Assembly: GCA_030040965.1 (NCBI GenBank)
Contig: JASHOT010000280.1
Span: 9,420-73,419, forward strand
Direction: 5' to 3'
Source of the DNA: Candidatus Sulfotelmatobacter sp.
Lineage (GTDB): Bacteria; Acidobacteriota; Terriglobia; Terriglobales; Acidobacteriaceae
Length of the DNA: 64,000 nucleotides
The first letter of the stretch is position 1, and each line of letters opens with the position of its first letter. Of the stretch, positions 2,317 through 28,098 are shown one piece after another. A program made the translations under genes and the position numbers. Below the pieces are notes generated by a model, which made no database searches, was not told the DNA's origin, and saw only the letters and a program-made list of their open reading frames with translations.

Positions 2317-2368
2317 ATTTAGAAGGGTGCAACCTGCGTCTGAGGTGTCATCTTTGGAACCCACTCTC

Positions 2369-3721: not shown

Positions 3722-3770
3722 CTCATTCCATTCGTGATTGGCGCTTTTCATAATTCCTCATACCAGCGCC

Positions 3771-3803
3771 AAAGGGCTTCCCCAGAAGGGAAGCCCTTTT
3801 TCT
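3771..3803 (+). terminator. rho-independent terminator after hemA
   Basis: AAAGGGCTTCCC-loop-GGGAAGCCCTTT hairpin followed by TTTTCTT. Confidence 0.7.
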
Positions 3804-3828
3804 TGGGATTCGAACGTCGCATTGTGTT

Positions 3829-3844
3829 TGGTGAGTACAATCAC
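3829..3844. promoter_or_regulatory. weak palindrome family member TGGTGAGTACAATCAC(G)
   Basis: GTGAG-TACA-ATCAC. Shares TACAATCACG with the 2105-2120 site. Lies 273 nt upstream of the lipoprotein gene. Confidence 0.3.
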
Positions 3845-4116
3845 GTTTCAGACGCTACTGGACTGTGCGAGAGGTTTGACAATTATCGACAAAATTCATA
3901 ATCGGTTTACAAAAATCGGACTACGATAAAGCTGCTGCAGGTTGTGTCGGATTGACTAGCTGCTAATGGAACGAAGGGGAGTGGGCCGATCATCGCTTCA
4001 AGCGATTGCTCCAAGCGAAATTGCTTCAAGCGATGGGTTCAGCGCAACTAGTCCGACCTCATGGTTGGACACGACAATTCACGGTTTCGTAATCGGCCGC
4101 TTGCTCGGAGGAAGTT

Positions 4117-5754: not shown

Positions 5755-5789
5755 ATTCAGGCAGAGGTTCGGCGGAGGACGGAGGAATT

Positions 5790-8878: not shown

Positions 8879-9032
8879 GCCCTCGATAGCTTACTACGAC
8901 GAGAGGCAAAATGGGGCTCTGCGCGGGCTGGATTGAGGGTGTCTCTATTTGGAATGGGTTTCCAGCGGTCCCGTACGAGATATAGGTTTCTCGAAAAGGA
9001 CTTTCGAAGAATGTCGGACGATTTTTTGATCG

Positions 9033-10298
9033 TTAGGCGGCTCCGGTCGCGGCACGCTCGAGGGGCAGAACTACTGAAAAAGTGCTTCCCTTACCGATTG
9101 CGCTAGTCACATCGATACGACCTTGATGTTCTTCCACGATGCGTCGGGCAAGAGATAATCCCAGTCCGGTTCCATCGCCCTTGGTCGTGTAAAAGGGACG
9201 AAAAATGTTGGGCAGCGAACTGGGCGAGATGCCGCGCCCGTTGTCTTCGATTTCGACAACGGCGGTCATTCCTTGCTGCTTGACCGTAACTTCGATCTTG
9301 CCGTTCGCGTCGATCGCCTGCAGAGCATTGAGCAACAGGTTCAGCAGGACCTGATGAATCTGATCGCTGTCGTGCTCGATTTCTGGAAGGGAACTGTCCT
9401 TGTGCAGGATGATGTTGACCGATTTTGCCAGCGCTTGCTGACGTCCCAGCATGACCGCGTGTTCGACGGTGGTGTTCAGATCGCTTTTACGCACGGCGGG
9501 AGGATGTGGCCGCGCCGTCTGCAACAGATCACTCACAATATGATTGATCCGTGCGATCTCCTGTCGAACATCTTTCACGACCGCGCGCGCGGGACTGGTA
9601 GGGGGCAGATCGCGCCCTATGATTTCAATCACGCCTGCGATTCCTGCGAGCGGATTACGGATTTCATGAGCCAGGCCGGTCGCCAGTTCGCCGAGAGTGG
9701 CGAGGTGTTCAGCACGTGACATCTGGGTGCGGTGCAGCCGCTCGATTTCTTCGCGGCTTTCGCGCAACTGTTCGACCATCTGATTGAAGTTGCGGCCGAG
9801 ATCTCCGATTTCGTCATTGCGGCGCGAAAAACTCACCGATGCCGTCAGATCGCCCGCGCCCACACGCGAAATCTTCTGTTGCAGCTCGACCATCGGACGC
9901 TGCACTGTGTACGTGAGAACGACCAGCAAAGCCCCGCAGATGGCAACTGCACCCGCACCCGCGACCAACAACACGATATGCCGCTCCGGATCGCGCCAGG
10001 AAAGCGTCGCCAGAAGAAAAAGCAGAAGGCCGCCCAGCAGCACGCAGGCAATCGGGACCAGCGCTTTGATTTCCCAGTTTATGCCGAACCACGATAGTTC
10101 GGGATTCTCCATTTTTGGAGCGCCAATGTCTGCCATTGCCGTTCCCGTCGCGCTGGCGTACCCGGTGCTGAACGATCTCCGGCGGGTGGGAATGATGGAC
10201 TCTACGTCATCCGATTCGGGTTGTGGCGCGGGGCTCGTCATTTCCTTGTTTATCTCGTACCTGGCCGTGTTGTCTTCGACCGTCTCAGGCATAAGCAT
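9033..10298 (-). CDS. sensor histidine kinase with HAMP domain and almost no periplasmic loop (intramembrane-sensing type)
   Basis: Two TM helices separated by ~6 residues (RDPERH). HAMP domain, H-box LAHEIRNPL, and HATPase boxes DNGRGI and GTGLGLS. The start overlaps the ccsA stop by 14 nt. Confidence 0.85.
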
Positions 10299-11718
10299 GC
10301 AATCCGGGGAGCAGGTACGTCACTCCGAAGAAGGTAAACATCACAACTGCGAAGCCTCCCACGGCAAAGTAGGCGGCGACGCGGCCTCTCATGCCACGCG
10401 TAATGCGCATGTGCAGATAGGCCGCGTACACCAGCCAGGTAATCGCCGCCCACGTCTCTTTGGGGTCCCAGTTCCAGTAGGAACCCCAGGCCCGATTGGC
10501 CCAGTAGGCGCCGGCGGCAATCATCAGGGTGAGCAGAGGGAAGGCAATGCAGATGGTTTTATAGGTGATGCGGTCCAGGTCGTCAGAGCCGGGCAGAAGC
10601 CGCTCCAAGTCCTGGCGCCGCCATAACAGCAACAGATAAAGCAGGTTGGCAAAGATTCCTCCGACCAGCGCCGAGAGAATGAATGGGCTCGCCGCCAGGC
10701 TGGTAGCGAAGAGGCCATCGGCATCGAGCGAAGGATAACGCCCGTCGCGCGCCCGCAGCACGAAAAACACCAGCGCGAGCGATTGCAGCAGGATGCTGAT
10801 GAACACGGCGCGATTCGCAGTTGCGATCAGGCCGTCGTTCTTCTTCGCCAACGCGAAAATGTAGAGCGCCAGGGGCGCGGCAACAGCGGCGAGAACCAGA
10901 ACCATCAGCCAGCCGAGATCGGGAATCGTCACGAACAGCCGCACTCCCCGCGAAAGAAAGACTTCCTGCTTGTTATCCGCGTCCCAGGCCACAACGTTCA
11001 GTCCGCCCCAGCGTTCGAAGCGAGTCAGTATCGCGGCATAAACTCCCACCGTAAAAATGCTGGTCGCGGCGAGGAAGGTCTCGGTCTTCATTTTGTCCTG
11101 GATAAGAAACATCATGGCAAGCGCGAAGCTCAGCGCGCAGGCCGCATAGGCGAGCATGGCCAGTGTGACGTGCACGTGCAGCCATGTAGATTGCAGCGCC
11201 GGGACGAGCGGCCGAACGTCGCTGCGCAGAAGCTGCATCAGCACCACTCCGACAATGGCGACGGGCATGGTGACCGTGCCGATAACTTTTACGCCGTAGC
11301 GTTTCTCGGCGATCAAGGTGAGCGCGGCCAGCGTCCATACAAAACTCAGCAGCATTTCATAGAGGCTGGCAAAGGGCGGATGTCCCGCCTCGTACCAGCG
11401 ATGCGCAACCGCGCCGGTATTGGCAATCAGCCCAGCCCAGGTCGAAAGCGAAGCAAACTTGATGTACGACTCGGTCCCGGTGACGCCGAATCCGAGATAT
11501 AGAGCTCCAGCGCCCGCGTAGAACACCAGAGCCGCGTAGAGCAGGTTGGCCTCACTGGCCAGATTTCCGTTTTTCACCACATTCAGGAACGCGATGAACA
11601 GTAGGAACGCGATGCTCAATCCCACCCCCACGACCAGCGTGGTGCCGTTTGCAGCTTCTGCGCGTCCTCTTGCGATCTCTGCTCTTGCCATATCCACAGT
11701 CCTCCGTTGCCGGCTCAT
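10285..11718 (-). CDS. ccsA: cytochrome c biogenesis System II haem-handling protein CcsA/ResC
   Basis: Polytopic membrane protein with the tryptophan-rich [14 protein letters not shown] motif. Sits directly after resB. Confidence 0.85.
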
Positions 11719-11733
11719 CTTCCGGCGCGTGCG

Positions 11734-13185
11734 TTATCCTCGGATCGCCGCGGCTTTTGGTTCTTCAGCCGCTTCCGCCGATTTGGACTTCAGATCCTTC
11801 TGAATCTGCGCCACGACATCTTTAAACTTCTGCTCGAATGCGTCGCGGTTGCGGTTGGCCGTTCCTCCAACCCAGAGCATGGAGTGGCCGCGCGCGTCGA
11901 TGACCGGAACGACCCACAACCTCACGTGCGAGACGTAGAACACGAAGGTCAGGCCGATGGCCATCAGCACCACTCCGGCCCATACCGACCACTGTCCCGG
12001 CTCATGCGAAACCTGCAAGCCGGTGAACAGCCCCGTCTTCAGGTCTTTGGGCTGAAAAATGTAGGGGGAAGCTGCATTTTCCGCAAAGCCCTGAATCTCC
12101 GGAAGCCAGACATTGACTGCTTTGTTCGCCTTCTTTGAAGTCACGATCATGTGAACCGCGGGATTCACCACATCGTTGCTGCGCGCGTAGATGTGGCCAT
12201 CCTGGACGACGAAGTCGGGAATGAACTCAGTCAGTTCCACGGTTGTGTCGGAATCAAGCGGAACCGGCTGATTCAAAGAGAGCGCGATTTCCTGCGCCTT
12301 GCCGGTCTTTTCATCGATGGGTGTAACATCGAGCGTCAATTTGTCGAGCTTCCCGGTCTGACCGAAGCTGGACTGGTAGAAGCGGACACCGTGATAACTG
12401 AGAGGATCGTTTACGACGATTTCTTTGCGCGAAACTTCGCGCCCGTTCTCCACCACGGCCAGCTTCGACCACCATTTCTTGGGAGAACCGTCGGCGTAGG
12501 TTTCCTCCCCGGTGCCGTCGCAGCGGATGGAGAAGGGAATTGTTTTGGTGGTACCGGTCTTGATTTCGATCTGGTTGCTCGACGTTCCCGGAGTCAGCAT
12601 CAGAAACCCGCGCCAACCGTAGAGCGCGTCGACGATTCCGCCGAGGAAAATCAGGAGCAGGCTGGCATGCACGATGTAAACCGCCATCTCGGAAATTCGG
12701 TGGCGCTCGGAGAACAGCGAAAAACTGTCGGTGCGGACGATCCGCTCGGAATGAAAGCCCACATGCTTGAGAGCCCGCTCGGCGGCGCTCAATCCTTGCT
12801 CTTCGTCATCGATCCTGATCTGCGCCTGTGTCGGCAAGGCACGGCGGAAGATGTCGTCGGGACTCTTATAAGGCCGCGCGAAATAACGCCAGGCGTTGGG
12901 GAAGCGCTCGACCGAAGCCGCGATGATGCACAGGCTTACCAACACCAGGAGCGCGACAAACCAGCGCGCGTGGAACACGTCGGTCAGTCCGGTTACGTCC
13001 AGAAAGCGCAGCATAGCCGGAGAGTAAGCCCGCTGCATGTCGTCGGGATCGATCATTGGGCGCTGCAGAATCACCGTGCCCGCAGCGGAAAAGATGACGC
13101 ACAAGATAATGAGAATCACGCCGGTCTTGATCGAACTCAGCGTCCGCCACAGTTTTCGTGGTGCAGTTTTCATTGACAGGGCCAT
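11734..13185 (-). CDS. resB: cytochrome c biogenesis System II protein ResB/Ccs1
   Basis: N-terminal TM helices, a large extracytoplasmic domain and a C-terminal TM. Adjacent to ccsA. SD GAGGAAG before the ATG at 13185. Confidence 0.8.
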   Translation of the reverse strand: MALSMKTAPRKLWRTLSSIKTGVILIILCVIFSAAGTVILQRPMIDPDDMQRAYSPAMLRFLDVTGLTDVFHARWFVALLVLVSLCIIAASVERFPNAWRYFARPYKSPDDIFRRALPTQAQIRIDDEEQGLSAAERALKHVGFHSERIVRTDSFSLFSERHRISEMAVYIVHASLLLIFLGGIVDALYGWRGFLMLTPGTSSNQIEIKTGTTKTIPFSIRCDGTGEETYADGSPKKWWSKLAVVENGREVSRKEIVVNDPLSYHGVRFYQSSFGQTGKLDKLTLDVTPIDEKTGKAQEIALSLNQPVPLDSDTTVELTEFIPDFVVQDGHIYARSNDVVNPAVHMIVTSKKANKAVNVWLPEIQGFAENAASPYIFQPKDLKTGLFTGLQVSHEPGQWSVWAGVVLMAIGLTFVFYVSHVRLWVVPVIDARGHSMLWVGGTANRNRDAFEQKFKDVVAQIQKDLKSKSAEAAEEPKAAAIRG

Positions 13186-13592: not shown

Positions 13593-15116
13593 ATGTTCCG
13601 CGAGATCTCAAATCGCAGCCTTCCCAAAGTAACCGGCGAAAGCGCCCTCCCCCGATTTCTGAAACTCGCGGCTGTTCTGTTCCTTGCGGTCACGCCGGCG
13701 CTGGCCAAGACACATCCGGTGCCCCTCGATAAGAATGTCGACTCCGCCAAGTGCGTGGAATGCCATGAAGACAGGACCAAAGGCAAGGCGGTCCACTCCG
13801 CCATTGCCATGGGATGTCTGAGCTGCCACGAAGTGCGCGTGACCCGCGACGTAACTCGGGTCAAGCTGAAGACCACGACGACCCAAGCCCTTTGTCTGAG
13901 CTGCCATGATGATAAGAAAGTCCAGGCGGGGCAGACGATGCATCCGCCGGCGGTTCGCGATTGCATCAAGTGCCATGATCCGCACGAGTCCGATAATCCC
14001 AACCAGCTGCTGAGGGCGATTTCCGGTACAACGCGGGACGACAATCTTTGCCTGTCATGCCACAACGTTGGGGTGAACGTGCCGAAAGATGGCAGCCGGC
14101 ACGCCGCGCTCGATATGGGATGCGACAGCTGCCACGTCACCCACAAGAACGGCGAGCGGGGAAAGATCGAGTTTGAAGCGCACTTAAAGAAAGCAGTTCC
14201 CGACCTGTGCGTCGATTGCCACGACGTAAAAGATGCCGCCCTGCAGAAGACGCATGCCGGACAGCCCTTCGATAAGGCGAACTGCCTGCAATGCCACAAT
14301 CCACACGAGTCGGCGAAGCCCAAGTTGATGCAGACTTTCCTGCACAACCCCTTCGAAAACAAGATGTGCGACACCTGCCATCAGCCGGCGAAGGACGGCA
14401 AGGTGGTTCTGACCAGCTCCGACAGCAAGGCGCTGTGCGTGACCTGCCACGACGATCAGGCAAAGAAAATCGACACGGCAAAGGTGCAGCATCCAGGCGC
14501 GCAGGGTGATTGCGTGACCTGCCACAACCCGCACGCGGGAAAGTCGCCGGGCTTCCTGCAGCCCGATCCGGTGCAGGCGTGCCTGGCCTGCCACAGCGAC
14601 CAAGCCGATCAGATGAAGAAGGCGCACCTGCATCAGCCGGCGTTCCAGCAGGGATGCGCGACCTGTCACGAGCCGCATGGTGGGGAAAATGACCACCTGC
14701 TGCGGGCGGCCAATGTCAACAAGCTCTGTCTCGAGTGCCACGGGCCGGATGCGAATCCGCAGAAGGTCGAGAGCGAGCATCTGGTCACGATCTTCAACGG
14801 CGGCGTGAAGCTCCCGGAGGACTACTTCCGCAAAGTGATCCAGCTGCCCATTCAATACGGCCATGGTCACCCGGTCGATCGGCATCCGGTCTCCGACATC
14901 ATGGATCCGAAAGACCAGAGCAAAGTTCTAAAGCCCATCAACTGCCTGACCTGCCATCAGCCGCACTCGGGAGCGAATGCGGGAATGCTGGCGAAGGATC
15001 AGCCAAACAACATGGCGTTCTGCATGACCTGTCATGCCGACCTGAATTCAGGTGGGCAGCCGGCGCAGAACGCGCAGCCGACAGCACCGAAGGCGCAAGG
15101 CGGGACCACAAAATGA
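13593..15116 (+). CDS. 16-haem c-type cytochrome (periplasmic, c7/c3-like repeats)
   Basis: 16 CXXCH motifs counted in 507 aa, many as CxxCH.PH. N-terminal hydrophobic signal segment LKLAAVLFLAVTPALA. Confidence 0.9.
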   Translation: MFREISNRSLPKVTGESALPRFLKLAAVLFLAVTPALAKTHPVPLDKNVDSAKCVECHEDRTKGKAVHSAIAMGCLSCHEVRVTRDVTRVKLKTTTTQALCLSCHDDKKVQAGQTMHPPAVRDCIKCHDPHESDNPNQLLRAISGTTRDDNLCLSCHNVGVNVPKDGSRHAALDMGCDSCHVTHKNGERGKIEFEAHLKKAVPDLCVDCHDVKDAALQKTHAGQPFDKANCLQCHNPHESAKPKLMQTFLHNPFENKMCDTCHQPAKDGKVVLTSSDSKALCVTCHDDQAKKIDTAKVQHPGAQGDCVTCHNPHAGKSPGFLQPDPVQACLACHSDQADQMKKAHLHQPAFQQGCATCHEPHGGENDHLLRAANVNKLCLECHGPDANPQKVESEHLVTIFNGGVKLPEDYFRKVIQLPIQYGHGHPVDRHPVSDIMDPKDQSKVLKPINCLTCHQPHSGANAGMLAKDQPNNMAFCMTCHADLNSGGQPAQNAQPTAPKAQGGTTK

Positions 15117-16372
15117 CATCCAGAAATCGCAAACAAGTTGGAATGGCGGCGATGCTGGGCGTACTGCTCTCGTTAGGCCTGGCCGCTCCGCTCCATGCCG
15201 ACAAGAAAAAGAAAGACGACCCGAACGCGGCGGCAAAGAAGACGGTGCTCGAGGAAATCGACTATTCGAAGCTGGTGTGGCCCAATCCACCGGCTCCGAC
15301 GCGGGTGAAGTATCTGAATTATTTCTGCTGCGACAAGTACGTGGCCGCCGCGCCCAAGCAGAAGTCTTCGTGGATGGATCGCATGGCCGGCGCCGACAGC
15401 GCGCAGCAGAAGCAGCTGGATAAGCCGCTGTTCGCGCTGTGGACGCCGTACGGCATCGCGGTCGACTCGAAGGGAACGGTCTACGCCGCCGACGGCAAGG
15501 TGGGCGCGATCTTCATGTTCAACACCGAGACCAAGGAGCTGACGATGATCAAGAACGGGGTGCAGGCGCACTTCGGCGACATCATCGGGCTGGCCATCGA
15601 CGATGCCGACCGGCTCTTCGTCTCCGACACCAAGTTTCACCGCATTCTGGTGCTCGATAAGGACCACAAGGTGGAAGGCGCGATCAGCGAGGGAAATCTG
15701 GTCGATCCGGCCGGAATGGCCATCGACAACGAAAACCGCTTCCTCTACGTGGCCGATGCCGGACGCGACCAGGTCATGGTTTACGACGCCGACAAGCTCA
15801 ACCTGCTGCGCACCATCGGCACGGCCGGCAAGAAGCACACGCTGACCGAAGCCGGGCAGTTCTCGGCGCCGACCAACGTGGCGCTCGACGCCGACAACAA
15901 CCTGTACGTCACCGACATGTTCAATAACCGCGTCGAGGTCTTCGACGCCGACGGGAACTTCATCCGGGCATGGGGAAAATCGGGCGACCGGCCGGGATAC
16001 TTCACTCGGCCGAAGGGAATCGCCATTGACGCTGACGGTCACGTCTGGGTTGCCGACGGCCAGCTCGACATACTGCAGGTTTACACGCAGGACGGGCAAT
16101 TTCTGATGTGGATGGGCGGGCACGGCTTGTTCCCAGGACAGTTCCGGGCGCTGGCCGGGCTCTATATCGACAAGAACAACCGGATTTTCACCTCCGAGCA
16201 GTATCCCGGGCGGGTGCAGATGTTCCGCTACTTCACCGATGACGAGGCGAGGGCGCAGATCAAGCAACGCCAGGCGGAGGTTGACAAGAAGAGATCGGAG
16301 GGGCCTAAAGCGGCAGCCGCGGACACTGCGGCCACTTCGTCCCCTGCGAGTTCTGCGGCAAAACCGCAATAG
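15113..16372 (+). CDS. NHL-repeat six-bladed beta-propeller protein (secreted)
   Basis: ATGA overlap with the upstream stop. Signal peptide MAAMLGVLLSLGLAAPLHA. Repeated blades such as LYVTDMFNNRVEVFD and VWVADGQLDILQVY. The track ORF start at 14735 is a spurious 5' extension. Confidence 0.85.
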   Translation: MTSRNRKQVGMAAMLGVLLSLGLAAPLHADKKKKDDPNAAAKKTVLEEIDYSKLVWPNPPAPTRVKYLNYFCCDKYVAAAPKQKSSWMDRMAGADSAQQKQLDKPLFALWTPYGIAVDSKGTVYAADGKVGAIFMFNTETKELTMIKNGVQAHFGDIIGLAIDDADRLFVSDTKFHRILVLDKDHKVEGAISEGNLVDPAGMAIDNENRFLYVADAGRDQVMVYDADKLNLLRTIGTAGKKHTLTEAGQFSAPTNVALDADNNLYVTDMFNNRVEVFDADGNFIRAWGKSGDRPGYFTRPKGIAIDADGHVWVADGQLDILQVYTQDGQFLMWMGGHGLFPGQFRALAGLYIDKNNRIFTSEQYPGRVQMFRYFTDDEARAQIKQRQAEVDKKRSEGPKAAAADTAATSSPASSAAKPQ

Positions 16373-16401
16373 GGTTTGGCTGTTCCGCGGATAGCCAAAC
16401 C
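16373..16401 (+). other. intra-operon stem-loop GGTTTGGCT-N11-AGCCAAACC with no U-tract
   Basis: 9-bp perfect stem immediately after the NHL gene stop, in the only sizeable gap (122 nt) of the operon. Confidence 0.3.
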
Positions 16402-16494
16402 GGGGCTGGTGCAAGCCGGCTCCGGGCTGCAAGCGCAGTAATAGAAGTAGCGGTGGAAGTAACAGCTGTTACAAAACAGGAGGTTTCATACGGT

Positions 16495-17517
16495 ATGAAA
16501 AAGCTACTCTTTGTAATGTTCGTGGTTATGCTCGCGGTCGGAATGGCTGCGGCGCAAAGTTACACAGCTGGCGGCGGCACGGGATTGTACGGTATTGATA
16601 TCCTGGGCGCCCACCAGAATGGCGGACGTGGTTGCGCTGGCTGCCATGCTCCGCACAGCGGCGCAGCGGGCGGCGGCGGCAACGCGGCCACCAACGCGGC
16701 TGCATTCAACGATCCTCTCTCCGGCAGCGCGGCGCTGTTCGGACAAGATGTAACTCCTCTGTTGGGATACACCATCACCCTGGGGAACGGCTATGTTGAG
16801 ACGCTGCCTGGCGAAGCGACCGCTTACACCACGCAGACCGCCGAACTGGAAGGCATCACCATGTGCCTGGCTTGCCATGACGGCGTGGTTGCGAAGGGCC
16901 AGATGATGAACGGCCAATCGTGGGAGCAGAGAATGGGTCTGCTGCCTTCGACCGTGTACGGAACCCGTCCCATCCCGACGCTGCTCGGCAACGATAGCGG
17001 CGACGGCAACACCAGCGGATACGGCAACGATCACCCGGTGGGCGTGCAGGCCACTTTGGCTGCCGTGGGTGCGTGGAGCAACAACGCCACGACCAGCCCG
17101 TTGACCATCACGATCAACGCCAACGGCGCGATCAGCAACATCGTTCCCAACAACGCTGCGTATGTGGCGTTCAATGCCAACTACGGCTATCCGGCCATCG
17201 CCGGCAGCCGCTGGGGTTGGGGCGTTTCTGTTCCCGCTGGAGCAACCAGTGGCGGACAGGCGTTCCTGACCTGCACCACCTGCCACAACCAGCATGCGAT
17301 GTATGTCTACACTGCCCCGGCCGGCAAGCAGACCGGCGCTTCGATCGCGGGCGGCGGATATTATCCGACGTACTTCTTCATCAACTCGCCCTATAACCCG
17401 GGCGCGGGCAACACCAACCCGAACGTGGCGGTTTCGACGACGCAGTTCTGCCGTCAGTGCCACGTGACGGAGTCAAACGAGTACGCCGGCATCACCACGG
17501 TCACCACGCAGTACTAA
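16495..17517 (+). CDS. tetrahaem c-type cytochrome, Gly/Ala/Thr/Asn-rich and loop-dominated (340 aa)
   Basis: 4 CXXCH motifs (CAGCH, CLACH, CTTCH, CRQCH). AGGAGG lies 11 nt before the ATG at 16495. Signal peptide MKKLLFVMFVVMLAVGMAAAQ. Confidence 0.85.
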   Translation: MKKLLFVMFVVMLAVGMAAAQSYTAGGGTGLYGIDILGAHQNGGRGCAGCHAPHSGAAGGGGNAATNAAAFNDPLSGSAALFGQDVTPLLGYTITLGNGYVETLPGEATAYTTQTAELEGITMCLACHDGVVAKGQMMNGQSWEQRMGLLPSTVYGTRPIPTLLGNDSGDGNTSGYGNDHPVGVQATLAAVGAWSNNATTSPLTITINANGAISNIVPNNAAYVAFNANYGYPAIAGSRWGWGVSVPAGATSGGQAFLTCTTCHNQHAMYVYTAPAGKQTGASIAGGGYYPTYFFINSPYNPGAGNTNPNVAVSTTQFCRQCHVTESNEYAGITTVTTQY

Positions 17518-17583
17518 CCGTTGAAATGGGGGAGGGAGATGGTCTCTCCCCCGTTTTTCCAGAGCTCGATTGAAGGAATCGCA

Positions 17584-18672
17584 ATGAAATGCCAAGTGGG
17601 GTGGGTGATGACGGGGATAAAGGCAGCGACGAGATTAGGAATGACGATGGGAGTGGTGCTCGGCCTGGCGCTTTGTGGGAGCGCGCAGGTGGTGGCCTCG
17701 CATGCTCCAACGCTGGCTGCGCCCGCGGCGGGCAATACGGCGGCGGCGACGCCGGTCACAGTGACTGCGCCCTCGAGCGGGCAACCGGTGGTGAAGGTGA
17801 ATGGAGCAGTCCTGACCGATCGCGACCTGCTGCGCGAAGAAGAGACGATTTTCCCTTACGCGAACATTCATAACGGCTCGATGCCGAAGGCGATGGAGCC
17901 GGAGATGCGCAAGGGCGCGATGGAAATGATCATCTTCGAAGAGTTGCTCTACCAGGAGGCGCTGCGCGAGAAGCGGACGGTGCCGGCCGAGCAGTTGCAG
18001 CGGGCGGAAGTGGAGTTTCGCAAGCAGTTTGCCACCGATGAGGAATTCAAGCAGGTATTGCAGAACGAAGTGCACGGTTCGAAGCAGCTGATGCGGGAGA
18101 AGATTCGCCGCTCGCTGCTGATCGACGAGATGCTGAAGACGGAAGTGCGCGACAAGGCGAAGGTGAGCGAGGCGGGGGCGCGGGCGTATTACGGCGCGAA
18201 TCCGAAGAAGTTCGAGCACAAGGAGATGTTCGCGATCCAGACGATTTCGATCATTCCGCCGCAGAATGCGAATCCCGACGTGGTCGAGGAAGCGCGCAAG
18301 AAGGCGCAGAACGCGTTGAAACAGGCGAAGGCGACCAAGAGTTATCAGGAGTTCGGCCTGCTGGCGGAAAAGATCTCGGACGATGACTGGCACGTGAACA
18401 TGGGCGACCGCAAGGCGGTGGAACGGGAAACGCTGCCTCCGCAGATTGTCGCCGCGGCGCTGGTTATGAAGCCGGGGCAGGTGAGCGATCTGATTCAGTT
18501 GGGGCCGGCGTACACGCTGTTCCGGCTGAACAAGCACATTCCGGCGGGCGCGGCGCCGTTTGAGGAAGTGAAAGCGAAGCTGATTACGGATCTGGAAAAG
18601 GAAAGAACCGAACAGCTTCGTTCGGCGCTCGACAAGAAACTGAGAAAGACGGCCAAGATTGAGGTTCTGTGA
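17584..18672 (+). CDS. SurA/PpiD-like periplasmic chaperone with parvulin-type peptidyl-prolyl isomerase domain
   Basis: Signal-like N-terminus. SurA-N-like helical region followed by a parvulin-like segment (...FAIQTISI...MGDRKAV...GQVSDLIQLGPAYTLFRL). The start was chosen at the ATG with GAAGGA upstream. 17521 and 17608 are alternatives. Confidence 0.75.
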   Translation: MKCQVGWVMTGIKAATRLGMTMGVVLGLALCGSAQVVASHAPTLAAPAAGNTAAATPVTVTAPSSGQPVVKVNGAVLTDRDLLREEETIFPYANIHNGSMPKAMEPEMRKGAMEMIIFEELLYQEALREKRTVPAEQLQRAEVEFRKQFATDEEFKQVLQNEVHGSKQLMREKIRRSLLIDEMLKTEVRDKAKVSEAGARAYYGANPKKFEHKEMFAIQTISIIPPQNANPDVVEEARKKAQNALKQAKATKSYQEFGLLAEKISDDDWHVNMGDRKAVERETLPPQIVAAALVMKPGQVSDLIQLGPAYTLFRLNKHIPAGAAPFEEVKAKLITDLEKERTEQLRSALDKKLRKTAKIEVL

Positions 18673-18761
18673 AGCGGGCAGCCAATGGCGCATGGAGATT
18701 GATGTGGAAGTTGCGCCAGGGCATGGGGGAAGAAATCAGGTGGGGCATGCCGCGGGAATGG

Positions 18762-20606
18762 ATGAAACTTCGGAGCGCGTGCAGATGGCTCGCCGGCGTG
18801 TTGCTGGCAGCGTTGCCGGCCGCGGCGCAGATGCAGGTCGGGCTGGCGACGATGAACCTGAGCGGCAACGTCGGCTATACCTACGACGGGGGCATGGATC
18901 AAGGAGCTTCGAGCCATGGCATGGGATTTACGGGCAACGGAACTCTGACCGGGAATTACTACAACCCCAATTTTCTGAACTTCAACGTCCAGCCTTTCTA
19001 TAACCGCTCGCAGTCAGACTCGTTGTTTGGCACGCTGACCAACGCGTCGGGAGTTTCGTCGAATGTGAACCTGTTCGGCGGCACGCACTTTCCCGCAACC
19101 GTTTCCTTTGGCCGGGTGTTCAACGCGACCTCGGCGTTCGGCGTGCCCGGCTCCGATATCGGACTGGCACAGCACGGGAATACGCAGACGGTTGGCTTCG
19201 GCTGGAGCGCGTTGATACCGAACTGGCCGACGCTCACGGTGAATTACGGGATCAACGGCACCTCGAACGAGATTCTGGGCGAAGAAGGAAACGACACGGA
19301 AAAAGATCACACGCTCAACATGCTCTCGACGTATAAGCTGGACGGCTTCCGCATGACCGGCCAGTTCACGCACCGCAATACCGATGCGTCGTTTGACGAG
19401 GTGGTGGAAGACGGCGAAGGCCCGGTGACGACGCTGAGTTCGAGTAACACTTTCGGCGCGACGGTGACGCATTCGCTGCCTCTTTCCGGAGGGTTCGGGG
19501 TGAGCTGGACGCATCTAGGCTATAGCTACAACTATGACGATTCAGACTCGGCCAGCAACTCGGGCGGGGCGAGTACGGTGAATGCGAATGCGTCGGTCCA
19601 TCCCACACCGAAGCTCGCCATATCGGGAAATTCGAGCTACAACGACAGCCTGTTGGGAAGCATTCCGCAACCTCTGCTGAACAGCGGAGCGCCGCTGAAT
19701 TTGACCAGCCTGGGCAGCTTCCAGTCGGTATTTGTGGGCGGCGACGTGTTCTATCAACTGCTCAAGAATCTTGGCGTTCATGCCGATGTAGACCATGAGA
19801 ACCAGATGTTTCTGGGCAAAAGTTATTCGGCGACGCAATTCGGAGGCAGCGTCAACTTCCTTTTTGATCATTCCATTCTGAAGGGGTTGTCGTTCTCGGT
19901 GGGCGCGGTCGATACGGCACAGCAGGAGAGCAATACCGGACTGGGGTTCGTGGGCACGGTGAACTACAACCGCAAGTTCTACGGATGGGATGTGGGCGCG
20001 AACTTCAGCTATTCACAGAATGTGCAGACTGTGCTGCTGCTGTATACCACGTCGTCGTACAGCTACCTGGGAAACGTGAGACATCGCATCGGCGAGAGCA
20101 CATACTTCATGGCGGGATACAGCGGGGCGCACAGCGGGCTGACGGCAAATTCGGGTACCACGAGCAGCGCCGAACGGTTCTATACGACTTTCTTGCATCG
20201 CGGCAACAGCTTCAACGCCTTTTACACGCAATCCGATGGACTGGCGGTGCTGACGGCAAGTGGGCTGGTGCCGGTCTCGACGACTCTACCGACGCAGGTG
20301 CTGGAGTCCAGTGCGCTGACCTCGTATTCGTCGAAGGGATGGGGATTTAATATTGGCCTGACCCCGATCAAGCGGTTGACCATCAGCGGCGGATTCGCGA
20401 AGTCGAACGGCGATACGATCGCTCCTTTATTAACGACCTATAACAACAACGAACTGATCAACGCAGTCATGCAGTACCGGTTAAGAAAGATATACCTCAA
20501 TGGCGGATATACGCGACTGCAGCAGAGTTTAGGTGTGCCGGGCTCGTCGCCGATTATGGTAACGTCGTACTACATCGGGTTCTCCAGATGGTTCAACTTC
20601 TTCTGA
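18762..20606 (+). CDS. predicted large outer-membrane beta-barrel (porin-like, ~614 aa)
   Basis: Signal peptide MKLRSACRWLAGVLLAALPAAAQ. Long run of short alternating hydrophobic/polar strands rich in G/S/T/N/Y. C-terminus ...YYIGFSRWFNFF (terminal aromatic). An alternative GTG start at 18669 overlaps the PPIase stop. Confidence 0.7.
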   Translation: MKLRSACRWLAGVLLAALPAAAQMQVGLATMNLSGNVGYTYDGGMDQGASSHGMGFTGNGTLTGNYYNPNFLNFNVQPFYNRSQSDSLFGTLTNASGVSSNVNLFGGTHFPATVSFGRVFNATSAFGVPGSDIGLAQHGNTQTVGFGWSALIPNWPTLTVNYGINGTSNEILGEEGNDTEKDHTLNMLSTYKLDGFRMTGQFTHRNTDASFDEVVEDGEGPVTTLSSSNTFGATVTHSLPLSGGFGVSWTHLGYSYNYDDSDSASNSGGASTVNANASVHPTPKLAISGNSSYNDSLLGSIPQPLLNSGAPLNLTSLGSFQSVFVGGDVFYQLLKNLGVHADVDHENQMFLGKSYSATQFGGSVNFLFDHSILKGLSFSVGAVDTAQQESNTGLGFVGTVNYNRKFYGWDVGANFSYSQNVQTVLLLYTTSSYSYLGNVRHRIGESTYFMAGYSGAHSGLTANSGTTSSAERFYTTFLHRGNSFNAFYTQSDGLAVLTASGLVPVSTTLPTQVLESSALTSYSSKGWGFNIGLTPIKRLTISGGFAKSNGDTIAPLLTTYNNNELINAVMQYRLRKIYLNGGYTRLQQSLGVPGSSPIMVTSYYIGFSRWFNFF

Positions 20607-21760
20607 GGATCGCAGCCGGAAGGAAGTTCCTGCGTTTCGGGGCCGCTCTCACAGGGATGGTGCTGCTTCTGGCGGCTGCGGGATGGGCCGCGGGCGGGGG
20701 CAAGGCAAGCAGGGACAAAGAAAAAGCGGCCGAGCCGGCGCCTCCGGATTTGCTGCTCGAGGGCGGCCGCAAATTGCACTACGAGCGCAGCTTCAGCTCC
20801 GAAAAAGAAGTGGAAGGCAAGCGCGGATTTTTCACCAAGCTGGTGGATGTGGTTGCGGGTGAGCCGGACCATCCGCATCTGGTGCGGCCCTACAGTATTG
20901 CCGTGGATTCGAAGGGACGAGCCATCGTTGCCGATCCGGGCGCGAACGGGATCCACATCTTCGACTTCGAAAATCACAAGTACAAGTTCATCGAGCGGCG
21001 GGACAAGTCGAAAGACAAGGACCCGATGCGCACGCCGCAGTGCGTCGCCGTCGATGCGCAGGACAATATTTATGTCACCGATTCGGTGGCAGGCAAAGTT
21101 TTCGTCTTCGATCCCAGCGGAAAATTCAAGCGCGCGCTGGGCAGCCTGAAAGGCGGCGAAGGATATTTCAAGCGGCCTACCGGCATTGCCGTGGATTCGA
21201 CTGCGCAGAAGATATACATCAGCGACACGCTGCGCGACAAAATCTTTGTGCTCGATATGGATGGCCGGGTGCTGACGAGCATCGGCAAGCGGGGCGGAGG
21301 CGACGGGGAATTCAATCTTCCGACGGAACTGCTGGTGCACGACCAGAATCTGTACGTGGTTGATGCCATGAATTTCCGGGTGCAGTATCTGGACCGCGGC
21401 GGCGCCTATCAGACCGAGATTGGCCGCATCGGGGATACCAGCGGCACGATGTTCCGGCCGAAAGGGATTGCGATCGATTCCGAAGACCACTTGTACGTGG
21501 TGGATGGGCTGTGGGGTATTGTTCAGGTTTTCGATCAGCAGGGAAGGTTGCTCTATTACTTCGGCAGCCGCGGAACGGCGAGCGGTGAATTTCAGTTGCC
21601 CACCGGATTGTTTATCGATCACGACGACCACGTCTACGTGGTCGATTCGTTCAACCGGCGCGTGCAGGTATTCAAATATTACGGCTTACCGAAGCAGGCG
21701 CTGTCGCAACCATCGGGGCCGGCGCAGCAGCCGAGGGAAGAACAAGGATCGGGACGATGA
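20588..21760 (+). CDS. NHL-repeat six-bladed beta-propeller protein, second copy
   Basis: Overlaps the upstream gene by 19 nt. N-terminal membrane/signal segment. Blades include IYVTDSVAGKVFVFD, IYISDTLRDKIFVLD, LYVVDAMNFRVQYLD and VYVVDSFNRRVQVFKY. Confidence 0.85.
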   Translation: MVQLLLRIAAGRKFLRFGAALTGMVLLLAAAGWAAGGGKASRDKEKAAEPAPPDLLLEGGRKLHYERSFSSEKEVEGKRGFFTKLVDVVAGEPDHPHLVRPYSIAVDSKGRAIVADPGANGIHIFDFENHKYKFIERRDKSKDKDPMRTPQCVAVDAQDNIYVTDSVAGKVFVFDPSGKFKRALGSLKGGEGYFKRPTGIAVDSTAQKIYISDTLRDKIFVLDMDGRVLTSIGKRGGGDGEFNLPTELLVHDQNLYVVDAMNFRVQYLDRGGAYQTEIGRIGDTSGTMFRPKGIAIDSEDHLYVVDGLWGIVQVFDQQGRLLYYFGSRGTASGEFQLPTGLFIDHDDHVYVVDSFNRRVQVFKYYGLPKQALSQPSGPAQQPREEQGSGR

Positions 21761-23682
21761 AGCGACGGACTCCAGCCACGGTGCTGTTGCTGCTCGGCCT
21801 GATCGCGCATCCGGCGAGCGGCCAGACACAGCCAGCGGGCGACGTCCTCGGCTCGCACAACCTCTCCCTCAGCGGAACATCCCCAATCAAAGGCCGGCTT
21901 GATCCCTGCCTCTATTGCCATGTGCCGCACTCCGGCGTGCAGAATTCGAATGCGGCGCTGTGGAGTCAGACGCTCTCGACCCAAACCTATACCACGTATT
22001 CGAGCACAACACTGCACAATACGTCGCAGCAGCCAACGCTGGGAGGACCGAGCAGCCTGTGCCTGAGCTGTCACGATGGCACGGTGGCTGTAGGGCAGAC
22101 GCAGCCTTACGGGCAGGTCCCGATGAGCGGCAGCATGTACCCAGCCGACGTGTTTGGAACGAATCTGCAGGGATCACATCCGTTCAGCTTGAAGCTGCCG
22201 CTGGTGGACGCGGCGGATCTTGTGCCTTCGCTGGTGTTGAATGGAACGACAGCCGATCCCCTGCATGCGGTGCAGCTAATCAACGGTGACGTGGAGTGCA
22301 CCAGCTGCCACACACCGCACAACCAGGCGATCGACACGATATCGAAGAATTTTCTGGTGCGCGACAGTTCGAGTGGGCAACTTTGCCTGGCCTGCCACGA
22401 TCCGAATCCGCGGACGGTCAACGGACAAAGCAATGACCTGGCGCAGTGGTCGGGCAGCATCCATTCAACGGCGGGAAATGCGATTGCCAACAATCCCTTG
22501 CTGGGCAGCTACACAACCGTGGCGCAGAACGCGTGCCTGTCGTGCCACATGCCGCATAATTCGGCGTCGCCGATGCGACTGCTGCGCGAGCCGGTGCCGC
22601 CCATGCCCAACATGGATGTCTCGACGCAGAACTGCATCACCTGCCACAACGGCAACTCCAATATTTCGCCGGCGATTACCAATGTCTATGCGGAGTTTGC
22701 CAAGATCTCCCATCCGTTTCCTGCAGGCGTGAACCAGCATGATGCGGGCGAGCCGGCGCTGCTGAACAATAATCGTCACGCAACGTGCGTGGACTGCCAT
22801 AATCCGCACGCTGCCTTGCAGGTGACTTCGTTTTCGGCGACGCTACCACCGCTGATCCGGCCGTCGCAAGCCGGTGTGGTCGGGATCAGCGCCACCGATG
22901 GTGTGAGCGTCCTTACTCCGGCAGTGAATCAATATGAGAACTGCTTGCGCTGCCATGGCATGAGCACCGGCAAACAAACTCCGGCGATCTTTGGATACCT
23001 GCCGACCCGCATCGTCAATGCTGCCGATCCGTTGAATCTGTTGCCGCAGATGAATTCCACGGCAAGCTCGAGCCACCCGGTACTGCATCCTAGCTCGAGC
23101 GCCTTGCCGCAGCCGAGCCTGCTGGCGTTCATGCTGCAACTGGATGGGAAGACGCAAGGGCGGGCGATGGGCACGCAAATCTATTGCAGCGACTGCCACA
23201 ACAGCGACGACAATCGCGAGTTCGGCGGCACCGGCCCCAACGGGCCGCACGGATCGAAGTGGCTGCATCTGCTCGAGCGCCGCTACGAATTCAGCGAGGC
23301 TCCCGGACCGGGACAACGCATTACCAATCTCTATCCCAATCCGGATGTCAGCATCAACGGCCCCTACGCCATGTGCGGGAAATGCCACGACCTGCAGAAC
23401 CAGATTCTCGCAAATACAAGCTGGGCACGGCATTCCAGCCACATCAACGCGGGATTCTCCTGCTCGACCTGCCACACTCCGCATGGCATCGGAGCGAGCA
23501 GCGGAAATCTCACCGGCGAGCGGCTTATCAATTTTGATTCGAAAGTCGTTGCGCCCAACGGCGGCATGCCGGTCTCCTATAATCGCGGCGCCAACACCTG
23601 CGCGCTGGTTTGCCACGAGACCGTGCACTATCCCAATGGCACGGTTACGCCGCTGACGGTAAAGGGGCCGGGGAAACGGTAA
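21757..23682 (+). CDS. multihaem c-type cytochrome with 11 CXXCH plus one CX3CH (CALVCH)
   Basis: ATGA overlap with the upstream stop. Signal peptide MKRRTPATVLLLLGLIAHPASG. Motifs counted by eye, several as CxxCH.PH. Confidence 0.9.
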   Translation: MKRRTPATVLLLLGLIAHPASGQTQPAGDVLGSHNLSLSGTSPIKGRLDPCLYCHVPHSGVQNSNAALWSQTLSTQTYTTYSSTTLHNTSQQPTLGGPSSLCLSCHDGTVAVGQTQPYGQVPMSGSMYPADVFGTNLQGSHPFSLKLPLVDAADLVPSLVLNGTTADPLHAVQLINGDVECTSCHTPHNQAIDTISKNFLVRDSSSGQLCLACHDPNPRTVNGQSNDLAQWSGSIHSTAGNAIANNPLLGSYTTVAQNACLSCHMPHNSASPMRLLREPVPPMPNMDVSTQNCITCHNGNSNISPAITNVYAEFAKISHPFPAGVNQHDAGEPALLNNNRHATCVDCHNPHAALQVTSFSATLPPLIRPSQAGVVGISATDGVSVLTPAVNQYENCLRCHGMSTGKQTPAIFGYLPTRIVNAADPLNLLPQMNSTASSSHPVLHPSSSALPQPSLLAFMLQLDGKTQGRAMGTQIYCSDCHNSDDNREFGGTGPNGPHGSKWLHLLERRYEFSEAPGPGQRITNLYPNPDVSINGPYAMCGKCHDLQNQILANTSWARHSSHINAGFSCSTCHTPHGIGASSGNLTGERLINFDSKVVAPNGGMPVSYNRGANTCALVCHETVHYPNGTVTPLTVKGPGKR

Positions 23683-24341: not shown

Positions 24342-27300
24342 CTATTGCACCGTCAGCGTCGCCGTGGTGATGGCTACCGGACTCGGCTGGGCTGCCGTCG
24401 TTCCCTGTATCTGGATGTTGTAGGTCACGGGATTCTGCTGATGTGACGAACTGCTGCTTCCCCCGCAACCGACGAGAGCAAACAGAGCCAGGGAGGCTAG
24501 GGCGAGCGACAGCCAACGCTTGCGATTGCGGCGCGCACGGCCAATCAGAAGAATTCCAGCAAGCGGACTGAAGGCGAGAGAAATCTGAGTAGCCAGGAGC
24601 GTTGTGTGGCCATTCTTCAGGGGCTGTTTGTTGAGCGAAGCGGAGTCCGACGGCACCGTGACCGTCAGCGTGAACGATACGGCGCTGCTGCCAGGCGTAA
24701 TGGTCGCAGGTGAGAAGGTGCAAGTCGAGCCTGTGGGAATAGAGCTCTGCAAACACGAAAGCGTGATGGGCTGGTGCGGGTTGCCGGTGTTGGCGTTGAG
24801 AGAAAGCGAGAAGTTGGCTGTGCCTCCCGGGGAGATCGTCTGCGGAGCCGGTTGGCCGGCCGAAGGAGCGGTAACGATTGCGATCGGGTAAGACCCGGAA
24901 ACCGTGGAGTCGGCCTGCGAAACGGCGGTGATCAGAACCAGCGCCGGCGAAGGAACGGAACTCGGCGCCGTGTAGTTACCGTTCGTGTCGATCGTGCCGA
25001 TGGTCGAGTTGCCGCCGGCGATCGTGTTCACTTCCCAATTCACGGCGGTGTTCGTTTCTCCGGTCACGGCAGCGGTAAAGCTCTGGGTGCTGGAGGTATA
25101 GACCTCGGTCACGCCCGCTGGGGTTGTGCTCACACTGATGGCCCCAGCGTCGCTGGCCGCGAGAGTGACCGCTGCAGAGGCTGATGTCGTGCCATTCGCG
25201 TCCGAGATCGCGGTTACCGTTATCGCAGACGAAGGCGCGGTGGCCGGGGCTGTGTACAGACCGGAGGCGAGAATGGTTCCGACAGTTGAGTTGCCGCCGG
25301 TGACTCCGTTCACTTGCCAGGTGACGTTCGTGTTGTTGGCACCGGTGACCGTGGCGAGATATTGCTGCGTACCGCCGACGGCAAGGGTCGTCGACGATGG
25401 CACGACGGACATCACCACTGTGGATGTGAGCTGGCGGATGCGCGAATTCTGGCTATCGGCGACGAACAGATTTCCCGCGCTCACGGCAACGGCTTCAGGT
25501 CCGTTAAGCTGCGCCGAGGTTGCCGGTCCTCCGTCGCCCGAAAAGGCGGCTGTGCCGGTGCCCGCGATGGTCTCGATCGTGGCGTCGATGGCGACGACTT
25601 CGCGGATGGCGGAGTTGTCAGTATCGGCGATAAACATGTTGCCCAGCGAGTCGACCAGCACGCCAAAGGGAGTATTCAGCAGCGCAGAGGTGGGCGCGCC
25701 GTTATCGCCCGCATAGCCGTCCTGCCCGAGAGTTCCGGCGACGGTGAGGATGTCGCCCGCGGGAATTGTGGTTCCGGCGATCGTGATCGATTGAGTTGTG
25801 GAATTCACCACGCGAATTGCCGAGTTCTGAGAATCGGCGATGAAAATGTCGTCGGAGGAGTCGAGAGAAATGCCGGTAGGAAAGTTGAGAGATGCGGCAT
25901 TAGCGGGGCCATTGTCGCCGCAGCCGCTGCTCGGGTCGTCGCATGCTGTGGGGGGAAGTCCGGCCACGGTGTTGATGGTTCCGGGCAGAACAGTGACTAA
26001 TCCGATGACGAGGTTTTGCGTGCCATTGTTCACCACGCGTATGGCGGAGTTGCCGGTATCGGCGATGAAGATGTTGCCGGCGGCATCGACGGCGACAGCT
26101 TGTGGATTGTCGAGCTGCGCGCTGGTGGGCGCAAGACCGTCGCCGGCATACCCGGCAGAGCCGAGTGTTCCGACGATCGTGTTAATGATTCCTGCCGGTG
26201 TGACTTGACGGATGACCGAATTTTCCGCGGTAACCCCGGTATCGGCAATGTAGATGTTTCCGAGGCTATCGACGAAAACGCCGTAGGGAAAATTCAGCTG
26301 GGCACTGATGGCCGCGCCGCCATCGCCGCAGCCGCCTGGGGCGGGAACAGCGCAGGTACTGCCGTTTCCTGCGACGGTTTGAATGTCTCCGGGCTGGATG
26401 GTCACGTTACCGATGGTGACCGCTTGTGAGCCTGGGTTGTAGACACGGATGACGGAGTTGACGGTATCAGAGATGTAGACGTTTCCGCCAGCATCAACCA
26501 AAACGCCGCCGGGGAAGGCGAGTTCGGCGCTAGTGGCGGGCCCGCCGTCGCCGGAGTAGGCAAGCGTGTTATTGCCGACTACGGTCTGGATCGTTGTGCC
26601 TGTGACTTCGCGGATCACATAATTGTCGCTGTCGGCGACGAAAATGTCGCCGGAGCTGTCGAGGAAAACTCCTGCGGGATAATTCATCAGGGCGCTGGTC
26701 CCTGGTCCGGATGAGGGGGTATAGCCGAATTGCCCGAGCGTTCCGGCAACGGTCGTGATGGTGCCGCTTGAGCTGACCTCGCGGATGGCATAGTTAAAGG
26801 TGTCGGCGATGTAAACGTTATCCGAGCTATCCACGTAAAGGCCGACTGGCAGACAGAGGAAGGCGCTGGTGGCAGATCCGTTGTCGCCGGTAAACTGGCA
26901 TGCCGAGCCCGTCAGGGAGTTGTAGTAAGTGCCGGCGACGATTTCAATTTCGCCGGACGGAATAGTGATTCCGGCGATTGTGACCGACGCTGTCCCTGGA
27001 TTCACAACGCGGATCACTGAGTTCAGCGTGTCGGAGATGAAGATATTTCCAGCTGCGTCGAGATAGACGCGTTCCGGTTCGTTGAAAATTGCGTCGAGTG
27101 CGGGGCAGCCGTCTCCCAAAGCATCCGTTTGCGCTGCGCAGCCGGTTCCACCGCCGGCAACAGTCCCGATAATGCCGGTATTGTTCGTGACCAGACGGAT
27201 GCCATTGTTGTCGGTGTCGGCGATGAAGATGTCGTCAGAGGAATCGACGTACAGGCCGAATGGTTCATTCAACTGTGCGCTCGTTGCCGGACCGCCATCG

Positions 27301-27797: not shown

Positions 27798-28098
27798 GTT
27801 ATTTCCCCTTTCGGACGACGCGGTACGATCCTGAAAGCCGCGGTATGTCACTGGCGGCGCCGGCCGCGATCGAAACGGGCGATATAGCGGCGACTGCAAG
27901 CAGGAGATTGAAAGTGCGCGTCTTTCTCAAGTTCAAAGCACCCCAGTTCATAGGCGGCCGTCCTTTGAGGTTCGTTCTATTCCCAGGGGAGTTTCATTCC
28001 GGGGAAGTCGTAGAACCCGTGCAGAGATATCGAACCCGTCTTTTATCCCAAAGTAGGGTGCTCGGGCAAACTGTGCAGCCATTCATGTCACAGGCGGA

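Follow-up and report, generated by a model that had tools for sequence, protein, structure and literature searches.

A tetrahaem c-type cytochrome gene, here called TET, was analyzed within a window of 64,000 nucleotides (nt) from Candidatus Sulfotelmatobacter sp. (contig JASHOT010000280.1, positions 9,420 to 73,419; coordinates below are those of the window). TET is the third of seven genes in an operon, MHC1-NHL1-TET-PPI-BAR-NHL2-MHC2 (13593 to 23682), which also encodes two multihaem cytochromes (MHC1 and MHC2), two NHL beta-propellers, a peptidyl-prolyl isomerase (PPIase) and a putative outer-membrane beta-barrel. We propose, with somewhat better than even confidence, that the TET product serves as the major tetrahaem subunit, of OmcE type, in an apparatus for extracellular electron transfer that is widespread among Acidobacteriota (Terriglobia, e.g., Ca. 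Sulfotelmatobacter). OmcE nanowires are already known; what is new is a predicted, enlarged acidobacterial OmcE-like subunit that is encoded in an OmcE/Uet-type cluster together with a conserved mRNA cassette.

Relationship of the TET product to OmcE

The translated protein of 340 amino acids (aa) contains four CXXCH motifs (C47-H51, C124-H128, C260-H264, and C319-H323), as a first-pass annotation made from the sequence had stated. Two of the motifs (CAGCHAPH and CTTCHNQH), rather than the three claimed there, have the CXXCHxxH context, in which a second His lies three residues past the motif. Gly, Ala, Thr, and Asn make up 46.5% of the residues, in agreement with the richness described earlier, and only 23 residues are charged. 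A Sec-type signal peptide occupies residues 1-20 (MKKLLFVMFVVMLAVGMAAA, followed by QS; ...MAAA/QS), which leaves a mature part of about 320 aa. The first-pass annotation also placed the protein among loop-rich, haem-dense cytochromes of the OmcS/OmcE type. Homology to OmcE with eight equivalent ligands was found, but the haem density was not, the TET product having about 80 aa per haem compared to about 50 in OmcE.

A profile of 100 family members reached a single entry among Protein Data Bank (PDB) chains, 9YUQ (E = 3.3e-4), in which the OmcE nanowire bundle of D. soudanensis (WTL) is modeled from cryo-EM data. Comparison of the whole TET family profile with an OmcE profile, made by aligning 60 collected OmcE homologues of 200-240 aa, gave 98.7% (E = 2.8e-16) in hhalign. 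When the signal peptides were removed, the two profiles aligned end to end at 97.6% (E = 4.1e-12), and the paired segments CXXCHxPH, CLxCHDG, NDHPxG, CXXCHxxH, and C-terminal CXXCH included all four haem motifs. Control alignments of the TET profile with four other multihaem cytochrome families gave only 7-37% (E = 4e-4 to 5e-3), indicating that the link between TET and OmcE is specific and extends beyond the haem motifs alone.

The ligand positions were conserved within the family. All eight Cys and all eight His (H40, H51, H54, H128, H180, H264, H267, and H323) were invariant in an alignment of 100 homologues, and exactly four of the invariant His (H40, H54, H180, and H267) lie outside the CXXCH motifs. 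These four correspond to H9, H34, H125, and H175 of OmcE (P0241 numbering). The last three were aligned directly, and the N-terminal His was placed by aligning the DILGAH of TET with the DVLGSH of the N-terminal module of MHC2 (MHC2-N), which share a D(V/I)LG(A/S)H motif. In OmcE, the building block of cytochrome nanowires in Geobacter and Desulfuromonas, eight His serve four haems and one His is supplied by the adjacent subunit. By these profile and residue comparisons, the TET family is a remote, enlarged relative of OmcE, with eight predicted haem ligands in equivalent positions and in the same order.

Homologues of the TET product are numerous. More than 2,600 were detectable in metagenomic data, all with hypothetical or generic annotations, and a homologue search without a word index yielded 414 clusters at 50% identity. 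The 120 closest homologues share 64-86% identity, have 326-393 aa (mostly 333-357), and are unnamed or generically named; an equally large sister subfamily has proteins of about 305 aa. Genome loci were retrieved for 39 homologues, all from metagenome-assembled genomes (MAGs) and mostly from Acidobacteriota/Terriglobia (Ca. Sulfotelmatobacter, SbA1, and bog and soil MAGs), with three labeled Binatia or Verrucomicrobiia. The habitats of the family are peat, bog, and soil, as represented by MAGs that include Ca. Sulfotelmatobacter. A published survey of OmcE homologues listed five phyla, with Acidobacteriota absent, and our literature search found no paper tying Acidobacteriota or Sulfotelmatobacter to OmcE-like cytochromes.

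Tetrahaem paralogues that stand alone, outside the cluster, were observed at 10001-11017 of locus L008, at 10001-10915 of locus L036, and, as a second copy, at 17380-18405 of locus L007. One genome has both a cluster copy (locus L035) and a stand-alone copy (L008).

Operon architecture and RNA elements beside TET

The seven-gene order was kept in about 36 of the 39 genomes. The junctions between the genes overlap (with GTG 18669 taken as the start of BAR), except for gaps of 122 nt before and 66 nt after TET, so that TET is bracketed by the only two gaps in the operon. The first-pass annotation had given the upstream gap its exact length and had described it as the only one in the operon; the second gap, with its terminator-like hairpin and T-run, had escaped it. 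The upstream gap is mostly 113-133 nt long in syntenic loci, and its length recurs, together with two leader hairpins, a palindrome, the Shine-Dalgarno (SD) sequence, and the 3' hairpin, in more than 30 related genomes.

The leader is highly structured. A 128-nt leader segment folded at -53.8 kcal/mol (z = -4.7 relative to shuffled sequences), with the SD left unpaired. Hairpin H1 is the 9-bp stem-loop without a U-tract that the first-pass annotation had located in the gap. H1 was conserved in 28 aligned leaders, with one compensatory pair and with G.U pairs that work solely on the sense strand. H2 was paired in 94.6% of cells across loci, mostly by way of G-C/G.U changes, and the two hairpins together were kept in 94-100% of cells of the aligned leaders. 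The AGGAGG before TET, which had been singled out earlier as canonical and unlike that of the neighbors, is indeed the sole perfect SD among the seven genes of the operon, and GGAGG is present in every aligned leader.

Between the hairpins and the SD lies a perfect 14-nt palindrome, GTAACAGCTGTTAC, which occurs once in the window (0.03 occurrences expected) and exactly once, at a constant position, in 35 of the 39 loci. A variant differing by one base was found in loci L030 and L034. The palindrome is absent before the stand-alone paralogues of L008 and L036 and before the second copy in L007, and none of these stand-alone copies has the other leader elements. The palindrome may act as an mRNA 5' stem-loop or as a protein-binding site (operator), and its sequence is compatible with either. 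The spacer before it (16440-16458; columns 90-107 of the leader alignment A2) was observed to contain GTAG-like hexamer repeats, e.g., GTAGAGGTAGAGGTAGAG in locus L019, whose number differs between loci and which, in the window, can base-pair with the palindrome's 3' half in the RNA fold.

Searches for recognizable regulatory signals gave negative results. Rfam covariance models had no match to 16250-17700 at E <= 1, and a sigma-70 scan of both gaps detected no promoter. The sigma-54 consensus was found neither in the leader nor upstream of MHC1, and its total in the window was below chance. A CGGCTC-N4-CTGCA string in the leader was considered as a sigma-54 site and rejected because its spacing is wrong and it is not conserved. 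The internal promoter offered as an option in the first-pass annotation was thus not recognizable in the sigma-70 and sigma-54 scans.

In every locus, a 3' hairpin, G5AG...CTC5, lies 8-15 nt past the TET stop codon, with a folding energy of -16 to -23 kcal/mol in nearly all loci and with G.U pairs specific to the sense strand. The G4AG..CTC4 motif is found a single time in each 21-kb locus and a single time in the window, always 3' of the TET gene, and it is retained after the stand-alone paralogues in L008 and L036. Its single occurrence per locus, stand-alone copies included, indicates that the hairpin accompanies the gene rather than being a generic type of terminator in these genomes. The hairpin resembles a terminator, probably a leaky one, and may also stabilize the 3' end of the mRNA. 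The T-run lies only about 30 nt from the start of PPI, and the 66-nt gap leaves no room for a promoter, so the four downstream genes most plausibly rely on read-through.

Codon usage distinguishes the cluster as a whole. The effective number of codons (ENC) of the seven genes was 37.7-43.7 and the G+C content at third codon positions (GC3) was 0.72-0.82; the other long open reading frames of the window had an ENC of 43-58, with all but one above 45. Preferred codons in TET included AAC (92%), TTC (89%), and CGT (60%). The codon bias suggests that the whole cluster is highly expressed or has a history of its own. The differential over-expression of TET that the first-pass annotation had envisaged thus fared unevenly: the conserved flanking elements and the omcE-like gaps are in its favor, the ENC is not, and the strongest signal proved to be the 3' hairpin that had been overlooked. 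Short metagenomic contigs were considered as proxies for transcripts and rejected, since the one retrieved (L041) spans NHL1, TET, and PPI and is therefore silent on transcript ends.

Table 1. Positions of TET, its flanking elements, and the neighboring genes in the window.
Feature	Position	Strand	Description	Basis
ResB + CcsA	10285..13185	-	System II cytochrome c maturation, divergent from the operon	Family match
MHC1	13593..15116	+	16-haem cytochrome of the c7/paired-CXXCH type, first operon gene	Sequence and family matches
NHL1	15113..16372	+	Six-bladed NHL beta-propeller	Pfam NHL/DUF5128; BLASTP to D. versatilis propellers
Leader hairpin H1	16373..16401	+	Stem GGTTTGGCT/AGCCAAACC, 9 bp, 13 bp as RNA, no U-tract; begins 1 nt past the NHL1 stop	RNA fold
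Leader hairpin H2	16402..16423	+	9-10 bp, CCGGGGCUGG...CCGGCUCCGG	RNA fold and aligned leaders
Palindrome	16459..16472	+	Perfect, 14 nt, GTAACAGCTGTTAC; ends 5 nt upstream of the SD	Conserved
Shine-Dalgarno sequence	16478..16483	+	AGGAGG; 11-nt spacer to the ATG, rather long	Unpaired in predicted fold
TET	16495..17517	+	Tetrahaem c-type cytochrome, ATG 16495 to stop 17517	Translation, 340 aa
3' hairpin	17528..17558	+	GGGGGAGGGAGA-TGG-TCTCTCCCCC then GTTTTT, terminator-like; in the 66-nt gap	10-bp G+C-rich stem, -19.1 kcal/mol
PPI	17584..18672	+	SurA-like PPIC-type PPIase	Family match; UetB counterpart by uetA-uetB-uetC order
BAR	18669..20606	+	Putative outer-membrane beta-barrel, 614-645 aa, signal peptide, C-terminus ...YYIGFSRWFNFF of outer-membrane-protein type	Sequence
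NHL2	20588..21760	+	Second NHL beta-propeller	Family match; BLASTP to D. versatilis propellers
MHC2	21757..23682	+	12-haem cytochrome (11 CXXCH and one CX3CH)	Motifs all invariant

The partners of TET in the operon have predicted functions in electron transfer, folding, and export. MHC1 is probably a periplasmic haem wire and PPI is a periplasmic chaperone. BAR, which was kept in synteny across related loci, is a putative outer-membrane beta-barrel that could serve as a channel or an anchor. The two NHL propellers matched those of the D. versatilis omcE cluster in BLASTP with E values of 1e-43 to 1e-50. The earlier description of TET as lying beside chaperone and channel genes therefore holds, the operon having a PPIase in addition to the parts found in minimal omcE clusters, with the barrel being putative. 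MHC2 contains a complete OmcE-like tetrahaem module in its N-terminal 200 or so residues (about 23-215). Residues 33-215 of MHC2 were 33% identical to D. versatilis OmcE (BLASTP, E = 4.5e-19), and the OmcE family aligned with MHC2-N at 99.5% (hhalign, E = 3e-22). MHC2 has 30 invariant His for its 12 haems, six above the bis-His need.

ResB and CcsA likely form the haem-attachment machinery for the cytochromes of the cluster. They belong to a set of genes divergent from the operon (7391-13185, minus strand), in which they are followed by a HAMP histidine kinase and a sigma-54-dependent response regulator. The adjoining segment (2219-7397, plus strand) contains hemA, which encodes glutamyl-tRNA reductase, the first step in haem synthesis, and then two paralogous DUF5666 proteins, each about 540 aa long. 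A gene for a 1185-aa protein with many NHL/teneurin-type repeats (24342-27899, minus strand) converges on the end of the operon, and further NHL genes lie downstream in several related loci.

Proposed role of TET and alternative explanations

The arrangement of the cluster suggests a route by which the TET product could reach the cell surface. Sec would export the protein and ResB/CcsA would attach its haems; PPI, the propellers, or both would chaperone it and hand it over to, or through, the barrel, where it would build the outermost haem chain. MHC1 would act as the periplasmic wire, and the OmcE-like head of MHC2 makes that protein a candidate for a tip or for an adaptor linking cell and filament. 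Given the homology to OmcE, the chain is most likely a homopolymer whose subunits each contribute one His as ligand to a haem of the following subunit. The TET product would be made in excess of its partners by a higher steady-state level and stronger translation of the TET segment of the polycistronic RNA, with the 3' hairpin (as a leaky terminator or 3' stabilizer), the structured and perhaps processed leader, and the strongest SD of the operon as possible sources of the excess.

A more specific version of this proposal, which we regard as speculative and rather unlikely to hold in full, is a heteromeric OmcE-type nanowire of Acidobacteriota, built from the enlarged TET subunit. MHC2, with its OmcE-like N-terminal module, would plug into the polymer through the same His-haem interface, either as an anchor at the base or as a haem-exposed tip, and the excess of subunits would be set post-transcriptionally by the mRNA cassette of 5' hairpins, palindrome, and 3' hairpin. 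An adaptor of this kind has been sought by workers on OmcE and was not found in Geobacter operons.

Several results weigh against the interpretation of TET as a major extracellular subunit. A phmmer search of PDB chains with the single TET sequence matched no cytochrome nanowire, and the relationship to OmcE is therefore remote. The protein exceeds OmcE in length by about 50%; it contains several insertions and, between the N-terminal His and haem 1, a deletion of 10 residues, and these changes could abolish or alter the polymer interface. The AlphaFold2 (AF2) model of the TET product, computed without haems from the 100-sequence alignment, had a predicted local distance difference test (pLDDT) score of 56.8, with the haem regions below 50 or disordered, and a Foldseek search of this model against the PDB returned only noise. 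MHC2-N is nearer to OmcE than the TET product is, so TET is not the sole OmcE-like candidate in the operon. BAR matched no Pfam, NCBIfam, or PDB profile, showed no detectable homology to three omcE-cluster barrels (hhalign, 0.1%), and gave an unusable single-sequence AF2 model (pLDDT 30); its predicted topology has its sole basis in the signal peptide and the ...YYIGFSRWFNFF C-terminus. At the RNA level, covariation in the leader was modest, with compensatory double changes at two pairs. The T-run after the 3' hairpin varied from 2 to 6 T in 8 bases and was weak in several loci in which the stem was kept, which makes the efficiency of termination uncertain. The ENC of TET is indistinct from that of its neighbors. 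Lastly, homology, conservation, and architecture were observed directly, and from these we infer localization, secretion, polymerization, and abundance.

The alternative that survives best, though we consider it clearly less probable than the proposal above, is an outer-surface cytochrome that does not polymerize, i.e., an OmcE-related, UetA-like monomer that attaches to the barrel or to MHC2 and exchanges electrons with minerals, humic substances, or partner cells, with the hairpins tuning its stoichiometry. The order tetrahaem cytochrome-PPIase-barrel, the two NHL proteins, and the 11-12-haem cytochrome fit the uet cluster, for which no filament has been shown; the insertions and the shifted N-terminal His could upset the OmcE polymer interface, and eight His for four haems would fit all-internal ligation equally well. 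However, each of the eight ligands has its equivalent in a family that polymerizes, and a ninth conserved His, as proposed for a 'stopper' that does not extend, was absent from the 100-sequence alignment. The expression architecture, in which TET is set apart like a major subunit gene, is also one that real omcE genes have in common, which argues for the subunit over the monomer.

A second alternative, which appears doubtful, concerns regulation rather than protein function. The 3' hairpin would be a plain terminator separating two operons (MHC1-NHL1-TET and PPI to MHC2), the leader would have no differential role, and TET would not be over-produced. A hairpin with a T-run does fit an intrinsic terminator, the same hairpin ends the stand-alone paralogues, TET equals its neighbors in ENC, and neither a promoter nor a processing site was readable from the sequence. 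This account would nonetheless have to place a promoter plus leader in the 30 or so nt before the PPI start, where there is no space for them, and it is difficult to reconcile with a T-run that is degenerate in several loci while the stem is retained and with a leader and near-invariant palindrome that are far better conserved than a neutral spacer. Moreover, the last place before a terminator would itself lift TET above the downstream genes.

Quite improbable, in our assessment, is a carrier that stays in the cell, shuttling electrons between MHC1 and the barrel or sitting in the barrel like MtrA: the Sec signal peptide with no recognizable secretion signal, the position of TET immediately upstream of PPI and the putative barrel, and the fact that abundant periplasmic shuttles of the PpcA family could likewise need strong expression signals are compatible with it, but a loop-rich protein of low charge with about 80 aa per haem is unlike compact shuttles or MtrA-type wires, the TET product is specifically homologous to a subunit of extracellular filaments, as opposed to the periplasmic-type cytochromes tested, and the periplasmic role is already taken by the 16-haem, c7-type MHC1.

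To our knowledge, cytochrome nanowires have been structurally characterized in only a few Desulfuromonadia and two archaea. If haem wires outside the cell are indeed built from the TET product, a phylum that is dominant in soil would possess a dedicated path for electrons to iron minerals, humic substances, or partner cells, with a bearing on carbon turnover and on the suppression of methane in peatlands. The locus also gives handles on how such subunits are chaperoned and exported (with the PPIase, the propellers, and the barrel as candidates) and on how their stoichiometry is set (with the conserved leader and the 3' hairpin as candidates).

Comparison with known systems

Chaperone-usher pilus operons of the papA/fimA type have the major subunit gene upstream of the chaperone and usher genes, and a stem-loop or partial terminator after the subunit gene makes subunit mRNA more abundant than the mRNA of the assembly genes. 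The papBA transcript is processed to a stable papA mRNA. The likeness of the TET locus, which is known from sequence, to these operons is an analogy in expression mechanism only, the protein families being unrelated.

OmcS is a hexahaem cytochrome without sequence similarity to OmcE, in which inter-subunit His ligation and haem packing are as in OmcE. OmcS was not matched at any threshold when the TET sequence (phmmer) and the family profile were searched against the PDB. The companions in the osc (OmcS-companion) operon were proposed to function in folding, secretion (channel-like OscEFG), and morphology. By description, the TET cluster and the osc operon are alike in that a filament-type cytochrome is encoded with companion genes.

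The uetABCDEFGHIJ cluster of Ca. Tenderia electrophaga and Gallionella encodes a tetrahaem cytochrome (UetA), a PPIase (UetB), a barrel (UetC), NHL proteins (UetHI), and an undecahaem cytochrome (UetJ), and the module also contains ccsAB. UetA and UetJ were predicted to be extracellular and polymerization was suggested, on the basis of bioinformatics and transcript data, from which alone the cluster is known. In gene order and description, the TET operon has the identical local order of tetrahaem cytochrome, PPIase, and barrel, two NHL proteins, an 11-12-haem cytochrome, and adjoining System II genes. It differs in having one 16-haem c7-type cytochrome instead of the three trihaem c7 proteins UetD, UetE, and UetG and in lacking the cupredoxin UetF.

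The TET product itself resembles OmcE (G. sulfurreducens GSU0618; D. soudanensis WTL, 9YUQ) in being loop-dominated and in having four CXXCH motifs and four further His, and the two proteins have common local contexts, D/xLxxH, CXXCHxPH, CLxCHDG, NDHPxG, CXXCHxxH, and CXXCH, in the same order. They differ in size (340 aa, about 320 in the mature part, compared to 200-230 aa for OmcE) and at the C-terminus. After the last haem motif, the TET product has a conserved, family-specific tail of 17 residues (324-340; 17467-17514 of the window) in which N328, E329, and T338 are invariant and the terminal F/Y is nearly so, whereas OmcE ends in ...CHxK. The tail could function in docking or in strand donation.

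The published minimal omcE cluster consists of two multihaem cytochromes, two beta-propeller lipoproteins, OmcE, and a large beta-barrel, with resB/ccsB adjoining. We observed this composition directly in D. versatilis (locus L040) and in two MAG loci (L042 and L043), which were used as references. The TET cluster is like them in its two multihaem cytochromes, two homologous NHL propellers, large putative barrel, and nearby resB/ccsB-type genes. It differs in that it contains a PPIase gene, its second propeller and MHC2 come after the barrel, its NHL proteins are without the lipobox Cys of the lipoprotein propellers, and its barrel has no detectable homology to theirs. In D. versatilis, a perfect sigma-54 consensus, TGGCAC-N5-TTGC, lies at 9901-9915 of L040, within the gap before omcE (9791-10000), and G+C-rich, terminator-like stem-loops with T-runs lie on both sides of the gene (the gap after it being 10646-10907); given the sigma-54 site and the flanking stem-loops, omcE resembles a monocistronic unit inside its cluster. 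The omcE gene in all three reference loci is flanked by the largest gaps of the cluster, 150-260 nt, and TET is likewise set apart from its neighbors by the largest intergenic gaps of its own.

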